DNA of 64,000 bases from a virus. Lineage: Duplodnaviria; Caudoviricetes. Of the stretch, positions 11,168 through 23,410 are shown in pieces. Below the pieces are notes generated by a model. The model was not told the DNA's origin and ran no database searches. It saw nothing but the letters and a program-made list of their open reading frames with translations. The stretch's first letter is position 1; each line of letters begins with the position of its first letter. The stretch covers positions 1,060 through 65,059 of IMG/VR virus record IMGVR_UViG_2880949579_000002; one strand, written 5' to 3'. The position numbers were made by a program, and so were the translations under genes.

Positions 11168-12787
11168 ATGACTAACCAGATCGAAAAAAACACCTTTGAA
11201 TACTTAGATTTGTTTAGAGGGTTTACTGAGAGTGACTCCTATCTTCCTGCTGCGCTTCTTGTGGCTGAAACAAAGGAAGAATACTTTGACAAAAATATTT
11301 ATGGTGATTCAGAAGAGCGAATCTACGAGACTATGCTGACAGTTGCAGATAGGCTCGATATTATTAACCCGTTTAGAGATAAGACACAATTTACCAGAGT
11401 GTATAATGCCTATGATGTTTTTAAGGGAGAGGTCAACTGGGAATTGATTATCGCCCAGAGTGATAGAAGGTATGGTGGGTACTCAGTAATTTCTAATGCT
11501 CTATTTGAGGAGTACAGCAGTCGCTTTAAACTTGACGCAGATGAGGTTCTCATTGCTGAAGGGGAAAAATTCGCTCCAAATCTAAAGAAACTAATCGATG
11601 AACATCCTGGTTGCAACTATACCATTACAACTGAAGAAAAAATTAGTTTTCACATAATCAACAGAATTTTTGCTGGTTATAAAAATGTAAAAATATTAAA
11701 TGTAAGTATATATCAATACGGTTTCACAAACAGTCGTTACGATCTTATATTCTCTGTACCTAATTTCGGAACAAGAAATCTTGCTGAAGATGAAAACTTT
11801 ATGAGTAGAGATCAAGATGCGGTAGCGCTTGAAAACCTGCTTCTTCATACAAATAATGGTGGTGAGCTTATAATCACAATGCCGGCTAGAATCACATTTG
11901 CTCATGGAAAGAATGGAGTGCTTAGGCAGTTTGTTCAACAGACTTATCGCTTAAAAGAAATTACAGAACTTCCAGAAGGTGCGTTTGAAGGAACAGGGAT
12001 TAAAACTTACCTTATCGATGTTGTAAATACCAAGCCAGGTGATGATGATGTGATAGTCCGTCGATATAAATCTGGTCCTCGTAAGAACAAACGTGATATG
12101 GCTAATAAATTTATTATCGATGAAGAAACATTCGTTATGTTAGAGGAACTTGAGGAACTTGGTGATTGGAGTATAAATAAAATATTCTCTCAGCAAGATG
12201 AAGAGTGGATTAAATTCCAAGAATCATCTATTCGTAAAATTGCTTTGGGAGATGTTGCTGAAGTTTTCCGAGGAAAATCAGTATCAAAAAAAGACCCAAC
12301 CGGAAGTGTAGGTGTCGTTAACATCTCGAATATAGGTGATTACGATATTGATTATGATAGTCTAGATCACTTTGATGAAGAAGAACGTAAGATTTCAAAC
12401 TACATTCTTAAAGAAGGTGACGTATTAATACCTGCAAGAGGAACCGCAATTAGAACTTCTATCTTTCGCGAGCAGAGCTATCCATGCATCGCTTCATCTA
12501 ACATCATTGTAATCCGACCTGAAGTAAAGATGCTTAGCAGCGTGTATTTAAAATTATTCTTAGATAGCTCTCTCGGGCAAAAGATGATAAGTGGTGTACA
12601 ACAAGGAAGTACAGTAATTAATATCAGCTATAAGGATTTAAATGCCTTGGAAATACCTGTTCCTTCAATTGAAGAACAACATATGAAGGCAAATGAATAT
12701 GAAAAAGAGTTAGAAATCTACAAAGAAACTGTTGAGGTTGCTGAAAAGCGCTGGAATAAAGTTTTAGATAAGCTACGAGAACTTTAA
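11168..12787 (+). CDS. Degenerate N6-MTase-like domain fused to a single HsdS-type TRD
   Basis: YDLIFSVPNFG in place of D...NPP(F/Y); ELPEGAFEGTGIKTY as in the HsdM C-terminal region; C-terminal TRD (LGDVAEVFRG, ILKEGDVLI, LEIPVPSIEEQ); no DPACGxG motif. Confidence 0.7.
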   Translation: MTNQIEKNTFEYLDLFRGFTESDSYLPAALLVAETKEEYFDKNIYGDSEERIYETMLTVADRLDIINPFRDKTQFTRVYNAYDVFKGEVNWELIIAQSDRRYGGYSVISNALFEEYSSRFKLDADEVLIAEGEKFAPNLKKLIDEHPGCNYTITTEEKISFHIINRIFAGYKNVKILNVSIYQYGFTNSRYDLIFSVPNFGTRNLAEDENFMSRDQDAVALENLLLHTNNGGELIITMPARITFAHGKNGVLRQFVQQTYRLKEITELPEGAFEGTGIKTYLIDVVNTKPGDDDVIVRRYKSGPRKNKRDMANKFIIDEETFVMLEELEELGDWSINKIFSQQDEEWIKFQESSIRKIALGDVAEVFRGKSVSKKDPTGSVGVVNISNIGDYDIDYDSLDHFDEEERKISNYILKEGDVLIPARGTAIRTSIFREQSYPCIASSNIIVIRPEVKMLSSVYLKLFLDSSLGQKMISGVQQGSTVINISYKDLNALEIPVPSIEEQHMKANEYEKELEIYKETVEVAEKRWNKVLDKLREL

Positions 12788-12801
12788 TAGGAGGTATCAT
12801 T

Positions 12802-20476: not shown

Positions 20477-20500
20477 ACTTAATGATAGGAGGGAATATTT

Positions 20501-23410
20501 ATGTTTAACGAAGACAATACAATTGAAAAAATGGTGATCTCAACACTAACCAAAAACGGGTGGAATTTTATCTCAGCTGATGATTTACCACGGGACTTTT
20601 CGGATGTGATGGTGGAACCGATGGTTAAAGAAGCGCTAATTCGTTTGAATCCTGAAATAGCGGAAGAACCATCTCGTGCTGATGAAGTCATTTATAAATT
20701 ACGTGCAATTATACTTTCAGTGCAGCATCATAACCTAATAACTCAAAACGAACTTTTTCAAAGAATGATTTTTGAAGAAAATTCATATCCTTTTGGCAAA
20801 AATGGTCGAATGATACCGATCCGTTTTTTTGGCACAATGAAAAAAGAAGATTTAGTGCTTAATGAATATGTCGTTACTAATCAATGGATTTATCCTCAGG
20901 CCGAAGGTGGAAAGAGACTTGATATTGTTTTGCTGGTTAATGGTTTCCCAATTTCAATCGGAGAATTAAAGACCCCGGTGCGCAATGCTATAACCTGGTT
21001 AGACGCTGCGAGTGATATTTCATCGTATGAAAAGAGTATTCCTCAGATGTTTGTAACTAATGTATTTAATTTTGCTACTGAGGGTAGATGCTATCGCTAT
21101 GGTTCGGTTGGCATGCCAGTTAATATGTGGGGCCCATGGCATACTCCTGACCATAAGTCAGAGGGTAGCCTCGCTGATGTTAAAGTTAGCATAGCTGATA
21201 TGATTACTCCTGAGAAGGTTATGGATATTTTTCAGTTTTTCACTCTCTTTGCTACAGATAAGAAACATGTTAAATACAAAATAATTTGCCGTTACCAGCA
21301 GTATGAAGGTGCTAACCTTATTGTACAACGTGTTATTGCGGGCTATCCAAAGCAAGGTCTTATCTGGCACTTTCAGGGTTCTGGTAAATCGTTGCTAATG
21401 GTATTTGCAGCACAAAAAATTCGCATGATCCCCGAACTTAAGAATCCTACTGTAGTAATAGTTGATGATCGACTTGATCTTGAAACTCAGATAACTGCAA
21501 CATTTAATGCTTCGGATATTCCAAATCTAGTATCACTTGCAACTAAGGAAGAGGTTGAAAACTTTTTTAAGCAAGATATTCGTAAAATTGCAATAACGAC
21601 CATTTTCCGATTTGGTGATGTCGAAGATGTTCTTAATCATAGAGATAACGTAATCATCATGGTTGATGAAGCACATAGAACTCAAGAAGGTGACCTCGGT
21701 GAAAGGATGCGTGCAGCACTTCCAAATGCTTTCTTCTTTGGACTTACCGGCACTCCAATTAATCGTATTGATAAGAATACTTTCCGTACATTTGGTGCAA
21801 CGGAAGATAAGAGTGGATATTTGAGTCGATATACTTTCTCGGATTCCATCAGAGACAATGCAACTCTACCCTTGAACTTTGAGCCAGTTCCAGTTGAGCT
21901 TCATGTTGATAAGGATAAAATAGATACAGAATTTGATGCTTTAACTGAGACGCTCTCAGATGCAGATCGAGCTGAGCTTTCAAAACGTGTAAACATGAAA
22001 GCCATCATGTATGATCCAAAACGTATACGAAAGGTTTGCGAACACATTGTAAAACATTATAAAGAAAAAATAGAGCCTAACGGGTATAAAGGACAGATTG
22101 TTGTATACGACCGTGAATGCTGTCTTAAGTACAAGGAAGAGCTAGATAAGCTACTCCCTCCTGAAGCAACAACGATCGTAATGGATACCAATAACGATAA
22201 GGAAGATCGATATAGAAAATTTCGTCGCAGTCGTGATGAAGAAGCAAGAGTTCTTGATCAGTTCCGTGATAAGAGTAACCCTCTTAAGTTAGTTATTGTT
22301 ACATCAAAGCTATTAACGGGTTTTGACGCTCCAATTCTTCAAGCAATGTATTTAGATAAGCCAATGAAGGACCATAACCTTCTGCAAGCCATCTGCCGTA
22401 CCAACCGTACTTTTGATGAAGGTAAAACCCATGGATTAATTGTAGACTACATTGGTATTTTTGATAATGTAGCTAAGGCGTTGGACTTTGATGAAGCTAG
22501 CATGAAAAAAGTTATCACAAATATTGAAGAAGTCAAGAAGCAGGTTCCTGCACTTCTCAGAAAATGCCTAAGTTACTTTATGGGCGTTGACCGTACCGTA
22601 GTAGGTTGGGAAGGTTTACTTGCAGCTCAGGAGTGTATTCCAACAAATAAAGATAAAGATGCATTTGCTGCAGATTATCATGTTCTAAATAGAGCATGGG
22701 ATGCTCTGTCCCCTGATCCATTTCTTGATAAGTACAAGTTTGACTATGTATGGCTAACAAAAGTCTACGAGTCAGTGAAACCCACGGATAATCGCGGTGC
22801 TCTCGTTTGGGCTGCTCTTGGCGCCAAAACAATGGAATTAGTTCACTCTAATATCGAAGTTGGCAGGGTTCATGATGATATGGATATTTTAACGCTTGAT
22901 GCGGATCTAATTGACGAATTTATTCGTAAGCAGAAAGATGTTAAAAAGACAACTATGAAGGTAGAAATAGACTTAGTTGCCAAAATTCGCGAACATTCTA
23001 ACGATCCAAAGTTTATTAAGCTGGGAGAGAAGCTCGAAGAGCTTCGTGAACGTCACGAACAAGGGTTAATTAATAGTATTGAGTTCTTGAAGCTCCTACT
23101 TGAACTTGCAAAAGAAGCTGCTCAAGCAGAAAAGGAAGTTGTCCCGGAAGAAGAAATTGATCGTGGGAAAGCAGCACTCACAGAACTCTTTAAAGGTGCT
23201 AAGAACGACAAAACACCCATCATTGTTGAACGCATTGTTGCTGATATTGATGACATTGTAAAGATTGTACGATTCGATGGATGGCAAAGAACAACTACTG
23301 GAAAAAATGAAGTGAAAAAGGCACTTCGTAGTGTTATCTGGATTAAATACAAGATTAAAGACAAAGAAGTTTTCGATAAAGCTTATAGCTACATCGAGCA
23401 ATATTATTAG
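20501..23410 (+). CDS. hsdR: Type I restriction subunit R
   Basis: RLDIVLLVNG..ELK nuclease motif, WHFQGSGKS, DEAHR, LTGTP, TGFDAP, QAICRTNR. Confidence 0.95.
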   Translation: MFNEDNTIEKMVISTLTKNGWNFISADDLPRDFSDVMVEPMVKEALIRLNPEIAEEPSRADEVIYKLRAIILSVQHHNLITQNELFQRMIFEENSYPFGKNGRMIPIRFFGTMKKEDLVLNEYVVTNQWIYPQAEGGKRLDIVLLVNGFPISIGELKTPVRNAITWLDAASDISSYEKSIPQMFVTNVFNFATEGRCYRYGSVGMPVNMWGPWHTPDHKSEGSLADVKVSIADMITPEKVMDIFQFFTLFATDKKHVKYKIICRYQQYEGANLIVQRVIAGYPKQGLIWHFQGSGKSLLMVFAAQKIRMIPELKNPTVVIVDDRLDLETQITATFNASDIPNLVSLATKEEVENFFKQDIRKIAITTIFRFGDVEDVLNHRDNVIIMVDEAHRTQEGDLGERMRAALPNAFFFGLTGTPINRIDKNTFRTFGATEDKSGYLSRYTFSDSIRDNATLPLNFEPVPVELHVDKDKIDTEFDALTETLSDADRAELSKRVNMKAIMYDPKRIRKVCEHIVKHYKEKIEPNGYKGQIVVYDRECCLKYKEELDKLLPPEATTIVMDTNNDKEDRYRKFRRSRDEEARVLDQFRDKSNPLKLVIVTSKLLTGFDAPILQAMYLDKPMKDHNLLQAICRTNRTFDEGKTHGLIVDYIGIFDNVAKALDFDEASMKKVITNIEEVKKQVPALLRKCLSYFMGVDRTVVGWEGLLAAQECIPTNKDKDAFAADYHVLNRAWDALSPDPFLDKYKFDYVWLTKVYESVKPTDNRGALVWAALGAKTMELVHSNIEVGRVHDDMDILTLDADLIDEFIRKQKDVKKTTMKVEIDLVAKIREHSNDPKFIKLGEKLEELRERHEQGLINSIEFLKLLLELAKEAAQAEKEVVPEEEIDRGKAALTELFKGAKNDKTPIIVERIVADIDDIVKIVRFDGWQRTTTGKNEVKKALRSVIWIKYKIKDKEVFDKAYSYIEQYY

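Follow-up and report, generated by a model that had tools for sequence, protein, structure and literature searches.

Organization of the locus

The window analyzed here is a 64,000-nucleotide stretch (positions 1,060 to 65,059) of the IMG/VR virus record IMGVR_UViG_2880949579_000002 (Caudoviricetes), and its positions 11168–23410 hold a type I restriction-modification (R-M) locus. A first-pass annotation had described this region as one tightly coupled operon with four departures from a normal hsdMSR, namely a pseudo-methyltransferase (MTase) carrying a target recognition domain (TRD), an HsdM fused to an ADP-ribose-removing (ARH) domain, a second HsdM, and recombinase-shuffled HsdS, and had proposed that the combination may be a single undescribed type I variant resistant to counter-defence. 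All of the components were found at these positions on the plus strand, and domain matches confirmed each of the four departures (Table 1). The coupling is indeed tight: nine genes nearly abut one another over 11168–25338, and intergenic gaps or overlaps do not exceed 28 nt up to HsdR. PADLOC, run as the annotation had proposed, called the hsdS genes and HsdR. The locus lies in a prophage; it is real and intact, and it consists of a known two-methylase R-M type plus three add-ons.

Table 1. Features of the R-M locus and its surroundings, in window positions (ORF, open reading frame; aa, amino acids; HTH, helix-turn-helix)
Feature	Position	Strand	Description
Large serine recombinase (serine integrase)	8941-10695		5' of the locus
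Palindrome TTTGGTA-N6-TACCAAA	11063..11082		20 bp; proposed ORF1 operator; one copy in the 64-kb window
Promoter-like TTGACA-17-TATTCT	11097..11125	+	14 nt 3' of the palindrome; consensus match only
ORF1	11168-12787	+	539 aa; N6_Mtase 18.5 bits (cut-off 20.4) and one Methylase_S (Pfam)
ORF2 (ARH-M1)	12802-15219	+	805 aa; ADP_ribosyl_GH (E 1.6e-40), HsdM_N, N6_Mtase (Pfam, NCBIfam)
ORF2 subdivision			ARH, aa 1-260; variable linker, ~aa 261-315; then M1-type HsdM
ORF3 (M2-type HsdM)	15194-16708	+	504 aa; HsdM; motifs AQEF and NPPY
hsdS-A	16692-17747	+	Full hsdS: TRD1a, R1, TRD2 cassette a, R2 (Pfam, PADLOC)
hsdS-B	17748-18833	+	Full hsdS: TRD1b, R1, TRD2 cassette b, R2 (Pfam, PADLOC)
R1, midpoint direct repeat	17209-17234, 18262-18287, 19887-19912	+	
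R2, terminal direct repeat	17691-17713, 18744-18766, 20369-20391	+	
Tyrosine recombinase	18862-19884	+	Phage_integrase, E 1.5e-34; NF040815, 243.8 bits (cut-off 220)
Half hsdS ORF	19850-20476	+	Start falls inside the recombinase gene
Spare TRD2 cassette	19887-20391	+	R1, TRD2, R2; without TRD1
HsdR	20501-23410	+	TIGR00348, E 6e-145 (NCBIfam); PADLOC REase_I
ORF9	23425-25338	+	637 aa; HExxH and weak C-terminal HTH match; full-length phrog_4031, E 2e-165
Terminator-like hairpin	25402-25435	+	15 pairs and T run; sole strong terminator-like site

The core enzyme and its conservation

The second HsdM has a known explanation. The methylase part of ORF2 has the PacII M1 chain as its best PDB match (7vru_A, E 7e-138), while ORF3 is closest to the PacII M2 chain (7vru_B, E 1.5e-169), and the two methylases share 47% identity with each other. 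The ORF2 methylase carries the motifs AGEF and NPPF, which show little or no variation across 78 aligned fusions, and the two different HsdM genes stand together with hsdS and hsdR in the order M1-M2-S-R. In the main-text passages of the reports on the PacII-type subgroup (Morgan 2016, PMC5100572; Zhu 2022, PMC9613975; PDB 7vru/7vs4), two paralogous HsdMs are encoded in this same order, M1 (AGEF, NPPF) producing N6-methyladenine (m6A) and M2 (AAEF, NPPY) N4-methylcytosine (m4C), and more than 300 putative systems are mentioned, frequently with extra ORFs. The one-to-one chain matches, the AGEF and NPPF of M1, the NPPY of M2, and the gene order thus place the two HsdMs in the known PacII-type m6A/m4C family of type I systems. 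By these likenesses the M1 part of ORF2 is predicted to make m6A and ORF3 to make m4C; M1 for adenine, M2 for cytosine and one HsdS would form the methylase, and HsdR would add restriction.

The locus differs from PacII in several respects. PacII M1 is 499 aa long, whereas M1 here bears a 260-aa ARH domain, and the locus has two hsdS genes, a recombinase module, and ORF1 as a proposed controller. Within the main-text passages of PMC5100572 and PMC9613975, ADP-ribosylation is not mentioned, and the words "glycohydrolase" and "recombinase" are absent from those of PMC5100572.

Co-occurrence of the components, which the first-pass annotation had set as a check, held for the core and failed for the full set. 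A scan of species genomes with ARH-M1 returned 168 relatives, and 80 of the loci were retained; HsdR and recombinase were counted in the 47 loci with at least 8 kb of downstream sequence, and ORF1 in the 66 loci with at least 5 kb upstream. M2 directly follows ARH-M1 in 80/80 loci, and HsdR is found in 46/47 (downstream in 38, upstream in 8), so that ARH-M1, M2, HsdS, and HsdR make up a tightly co-conserved core. ORF1 is present in 34/66 loci and the recombinase in 19/47, while ORF1, HsdR, and the recombinase occur jointly in just 5/42 loci. The locus is therefore a stack of modules and not one system. The proposal of one undescribed variant is not borne out, since the set is not co-conserved and ORF1 also heads an operon lineage without ARH (nine loci, see below).

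ORF1 is a degenerate methylase joined to a half-HsdS

ORF1 lacks both hallmarks of active gamma-class N6-adenine MTases, the Gly-rich motif I and motif IV of the type (D/N/S)PP(Y/F). Across 26 aligned homologues, motif IV reads xVPxFGxR and NPPF/Y occurs in none, while the motif I position reads VLIxExEKF and the Gly-rich loop is missing from all 26. With nine members of a second lineage added, 35/35 proteins have xVPxFG or xLPxFG at motif IV and LIxExEK at motif I. ORF1 retains MTase motifs V–VIII and a long S-like C-terminal helix, and its TRD is the best-conserved part in the alignment of 26.

The AlphaFold model of ORF1 (pLDDT 87.4, pTM 0.79) had its best fold matches in 7eew, Esub1, CamA, and M.TaqI. 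Residues 353–536 correspond to the whole of Esub1 (SpyM3_0890 of Streptococcus pyogenes; PDB 8vsq/8vsr; Muna 2024, PMC11754733), with E 3e-36, 36%–38% identity, and a TM-score normalized to the target of 0.89–0.92, the insertion helix included. Passages of PMC11754733 describe Esub1 as a homodimeric half-S protein of unassigned function; the phage protein paratox binds its insertion helix, and the authors saw in it a resemblance to a transcription factor. Esub1 stands alone, distant from hsd genes; in ORF1, in contrast, the half-S is joined to a dead MTase domain, and the gene is the first of a type I operon. Like ORF1, the other fold matches, which are the M-S fusion methylase of Vibrio vulnificus in 7eew (a structure with Ocr), CamA, and M.TaqI, show the MTase-then-TRD layout. 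By their PDB titles these matches were crystallized as methylases with cofactor or substrate, whereas ORF1 is without motifs I and IV.

A scan of viral contigs with the ORF1 family returned 12 loci, all adjoining ARH-M1 and M2. In a sample of 401 genomes, 11 full-length members were found (including that of G000), plus two cut by contig ends. In 9 of the 10 other genomes, ORF1 is encoded directly 5' of a single ARH-less hsdM belonging to a different type I lineage, and these nine proteins share both the motif degeneracy and the conserved TRD. A role specific to the ARH system, which fits 12/12 viral loci, is refuted by these nine genomes; heading a second, ARH-less lineage, ORF1 is a general accessory of type I operons. 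Separately, proteins of about 630–660 aa in L110–L115 and L137–L140 match only the Esub1-like TRD part of ORF1 and could be catalytically active M-S fusion methylases akin to the ORF1 ancestor.

A palindrome at the promoter of ORF1

The palindrome listed in Table 1 occurs once in the window, against 0.13 copies expected by chance. Its general form, TTTRGTA-N6-TACYAAA, was found within 300 nt 5' of the ORF1 homologue in 46/57 loci (47/57 after correction of an over-extended start in L010), and in 8/9 loci of the ARH-less lineage. Elsewhere in 1.83 Mb of related loci it is absent, all other matches being duplicates of the same upstream regions. Two arrangements relative to the promoter prevail. 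In 14/46 loci the 6-nt spacer of the palindrome is itself the -35 box, mostly TTGACA, followed 17–18 nt on (17 in 13/14) by a -10-like hexamer that is a perfect TATAAT in 7/14. In 23/46 loci, including the window, a TTGACA-17/18-TATTCT-like promoter begins 25–36 nt past the start of the palindrome, its -35 TTGACA lying 5–16 nt after the palindrome. The former layout implies repression, and the latter, with the palindrome 5' of the -35 box, would suit either repression or activation. In some loci (L020, L056, L040, L043, L132) the operator sequence is nested in a perfect palindrome of much greater length, whose arms reach up to 26 nt.

A fixed palindromic target accounts at once for the conserved TRD, the lost catalysis, and the position of ORF1 as the first gene. 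ORF1 would bind the palindrome at its own promoter, probably as a homodimer, and so control the operon, which would make it the working equivalent of the C protein of type II systems. The C proteins of type II R-M systems are small HTH proteins. ORF1 resembles them as the first operon gene with a palindrome at its own promoter and differs in being a 539-aa derivative of MTase and HsdS; a search of ORF1 against HTH families gave no match at E up to 10. ORF1 is thus C-protein-like in its proposed role and outside the C-protein family. The first-pass annotation was right about the degeneracy of the extra subunit; as to its supposed counter-defence role, the palindrome data fit an operator-binding controller better. 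ORF1 is probably the operon's own controller and is better explained in this way than as a decoy or a counter-defence part.

The ARH domain fused to M1

The N-terminal domain of ORF2 scored 140 bits against PF03747, the ARH/DraG family (curated cut-off 26.2). The motifs GDxxGxxxE, TDD(S/T), GNGxxMR, and GGDSDT, which have metal-binding and catalytic roles in ARH3 and DraG, are at least 95% conserved at the tabulated positions in 78 full-length fusions, except for the last residue of TDDS (S in 70 fusions, T in 8). Averaged over alignment columns, identity in the same 78 fusions is 75% for ARH, 77% for the MTase, and 42% for the linker. Among database relatives, the best 120 all share this architecture; 118 are full-length, 113 are exactly 805 aa long, identities range from 79% to 100%, and annotations read merely "N-6 DNA methylase" or similar. 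Hosts found in the ARH-M1 scan are mostly Bacillota, the others being assigned to Akkermansia, Proteiniphilum, Synergistaceae, Deferribacteraceae, Acholeplasma, and Methanomicrobium.

Of 401 Bacillota genomes sampled, 61 encode the ARH subfamily, in most cases as a stand-alone protein of 260–290 aa with at most 75% identity, and three of the 61 have it fused to M1; stand-alone copies were also found in phages. The same genome as the window encodes a second, stand-alone paralogue (G000:C12:88784-89587; 294-aa open frame, 56% identical). In L165 (G008:C20; 2204-10017 of the locus, minus strand) an hsdM-hsdS-hsdR operon is followed by a stand-alone ARH gene overlapping a gyrI-like gene, and this pair recurs in L168 without R-M genes. 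L166 (G206:C1:2862000-2880000; 7337-17600 of the locus, minus strand) encodes DUF2326/AAA, type III mod and res, GmrSD, and a 628-aa fusion in which an N-terminal ARH domain of the same subfamily precedes a 370-aa C-terminal part of no recognised family. In L127 (G006:C64; the same sequence as L074) the ARH-M1 gene is split into two frames at ~7314-7316, probably by a frameshift or an assembly error.

Placed on a flexible linker at the N-terminus of M1, the intact ARH domain would strip ADP-ribose from the DNA substrate or from the enzyme complex. We lean towards DNA as the target, with the enzyme itself as the second choice. Resistance of the locus to counter-defence, as supposed by the first-pass annotation, is suggested by this intact domain and by no other component. 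No link between ARH and HsdM was found in the literature searched, though REBASE or the supplements of PMC5100572 and PMC9613975 may list such fusions; a literature search for "Lmo0067" yielded no paper, and PMC12255303 mentions ADP-ribosylation for DarTG only.

Specificity cassettes and the recombinase

R1 and R2, direct repeats of 19–26 bp, occur in three copies each. The spare cassette duplicates 18263-18765, the TRD2 of hsdS-B, at 99.8% identity. The hsdS copies are direct, not inverted; there are no hsdS-length inverted repeats in the window and no minus-strand hsdS matches in 80 loci (0/80). A classical inverting hsdS shufflon of the SpnIII/ivr type is ruled out by the same two facts, direct copies and no minus-strand hsdS.

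The window is 97%–99% identical to L002 and L004 except for the three TRD2 cassettes bounded by R1 and R2, and in L004 the gene order is different, with the recombinase between hsdS-A and hsdS-B. Thirteen other sequencing runs from at least 10 studies contain 0.60–0.67 of the sampled words of the window. These runs were compared on assembled contigs, RNA runs being excluded for too few words, and parts uncovered by contigs were counted as replaced only where a contig joins across. In a 107-kb contig of run X3, slot A is occupied by cassette b of the window, and the joints fall precisely at R1 (17208/19887, 26 shared letters) and at R2 (20368/17691, 19 shared letters). The R2 joint also occurs in run X5, which has an L004-like order. 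Other cassettes in the run contigs are replaced by 474 or 529 different letters. Across loci, the recombinase tracks additional specificity DNA: more than 1.5 kb of hsdS-like DNA was found in 18/19 loci with the recombinase and in 0/28 without it.

These comparisons suggest that the tyrosine recombinase would move TRD2 cassettes between three places, the two expressed hsdS genes and a silent slot, cutting them out and reinserting them at the two kinds of direct repeat. The mechanism is inferred from comparison and appears tvr-like. Passages of Kwun 2018 (PMC6265443) report excision-reintegration by the recombinase as established for the pneumococcal tvr (SpnIV) locus, and the layout described there is alike in a tyrosine recombinase inside an hsd locus, in midpoint and terminal direct repeats, and in TRD segments all pointing one way; alternative orders with joints at the repeats were found here. 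The likeness is one of layout and of rearranged orders. Unlike tvr, our locus has two full hsdS genes 5' of the recombinase and belongs to an m6A/m4C system, and no tvrAT-like pair is evident beside the recombinase (no dedicated search was made). The statement of the first-pass annotation that two-methylase type I systems and recombinase-shuffled hsdS loci had each been described separately thus agrees with the passages on the PacII family and on tvr/SpnIV cited above.

Prophage setting and the cargo site

The serine integrase gene lies 5' of the locus, and genes for an anti-repressor, primase-helicase, terminase, portal, capsid, and tape-measure protein follow 3' of it. The G+C content is about 31% before 11 kb, about 37% over the locus, and about 42% beyond 26 kb. 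A megablast search with the whole locus against phage records gave no match. Outside the prophage, window positions 165-6544 (~31% G+C) carry pilus-type genes for a VWA-domain protein, a sortase, and a Cna_B/FctA isopeptide-domain protein.

The possibility that ORF9 is an R-M component was rejected, as its homologues elsewhere trail unrelated cargo. ORF9 is encoded 3' of HsdR in 14/47 loci, of which 13/14 also carry ORF1. In phage phi-SsUD.1 and in a phage of Oscillospiraceae, homologues of ORF9 come after cargo of unrelated kinds, cadCA and tet(W) in one phage and methylases with a nuclease in another; in Streptococcus suis and Oscillospiraceae prophages the gene stands directly behind the variable cargo. 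Gene context thus identifies ORF9 as a prophage backbone gene bounding a cargo site, and its product is probably a phage lysogeny regulator. The R-M locus would accordingly be temperate-phage cargo placed between the serine integrase and this backbone regulator gene.

Weighing the explanations

Taken together, we consider it likely that the locus is prophage cargo composed of a PacII-type core, ORF1 as controller, the ARH domain, and a tvr-like recombinase. Several facts weigh against parts of this explanation. The strict palindrome is missing from 10/57 ORF1 loci (11/57 before the start of L010 was corrected), and in the window it sits 5' of the -35 box and not on it. Homodimerization of ORF1 is taken from the analogy with Esub1. 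Stand-alone ARH relatives mostly sit in unrelated gene contexts, and no ADP-ribosyltransferase partner turned up, no search having been aimed at one. M2 here has AQEF, whereas AAEF is reported for the PacII-type family, and the evidence for shuffling comes from comparison between samples, not from events inside one clone.

ORF1 could instead be a decoy, an inert M2S look-alike that soaks up DNA-mimicking anti-restriction proteins such as Ocr and ArdA, or a Ronin-like guard. Its best fold match, 7eew, is a methylase crystallized with Ocr, its relative Esub1 is bound by paratox, and, in the part of 10.1101/2023.04.06.535777 that deals with it, Ronin shows that HsdMS can serve as a decoy. Ronin, consisting of HsdM and HsdS without HsdR together with a small toxin gene, is unlike the systems considered here, nearly all of which have HsdR, and no effector gene is linked to ORF1 (no search was aimed at a small membrane ORF). 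Moreover, a decoy needs no fixed DNA site, yet the palindrome recurs at the promoter of ORF1 and nowhere else, and conservation within ORF1 is highest in the TRD; we therefore regard a decoy as improbable, while noting that decoy and controller roles are mutually compatible. An extra specificity module recruiting HsdR to fixed or modified DNA without methylating it, in a hybrid of type I and type IV restriction, would agree with the retained MTase motifs V–VIII, the S-like helix, and the constant location of ORF1 beside hsdM or hsdR. The sole conserved candidate site, however, is its own promoter, unmodified self DNA, and the result would be self-restriction, which makes this option very hard to believe. 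A controller acting at the palindrome remains our preferred explanation of ORF1.

For the ARH domain, the alternative is protection of the restriction proteins by removal of ADP-ribose that phage ADP-ribosyltransferases would attach to arginines of HsdM, HsdS, or HsdR. Phage T4 Alt modifies host proteins, the best named NCBIfam matches of the domain, DraG (E 5.6e-18) and Tri1 (E 3e-10), both act on arginine as hydrolases, and the metal and catalytic motifs of the domain are all intact. Against this, a phage transferase aimed at type I enzymes was not found in the literature searched, the same ARH subfamily adjoins unrelated restriction enzymes, whose common feature is DNA, and the ARH-like DarG3 is reported, in the part of a 2026 paper that concerns it, as an antidote to a DNA ADP-ribosyltransferase. 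Protection of proteins is thus a serious but less probable option than action on DNA. The variety of hsdS might likewise have arisen by ordinary homologous recombination with incoming DNA, R1 and R2 serving as arms and the recombinase serving otherwise. The TRD2 cassettes are wholly different between otherwise 97%–99% identical loci, which implies import from a large pool. The shortness of the repeats, the association of the recombinase with extra hsdS DNA, and the whole-slot changes of order with joints at the repeats, which fit excision and reintegration, make this origin unlikely, and we prefer cassette movement by the recombinase.

Significance

Among the four departures, the M1M2S composition and tvr-like shuffling are of known kinds, while neither the fusion of ARH to M1 nor the proposed controller ORF1 and its operator is described in the literature searched. 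It is possible, and we put it forward tentatively, that two undescribed elements travel together here, namely transcription controllers made of a dead methylase and a half-S, acting at a fixed bipartite palindrome in their own promoters in at least two type I lineages, and a restriction enzyme bearing an ADP-ribose eraser. The locus joins a known two-methylase system to a tvr-like specificity shuffler on phages. How type I systems are controlled on entering new hosts is poorly understood and matters for mobile elements; a methylase-derived, operator-binding controller, if true, would be a new kind of regulator. The ARH fusion, found in 168 species genomes, points to ADP-ribosylation as a weapon around restriction enzymes, and, if the proposed function is true, ADP-ribosylation of DNA or of the enzyme would be used in nature against restriction.

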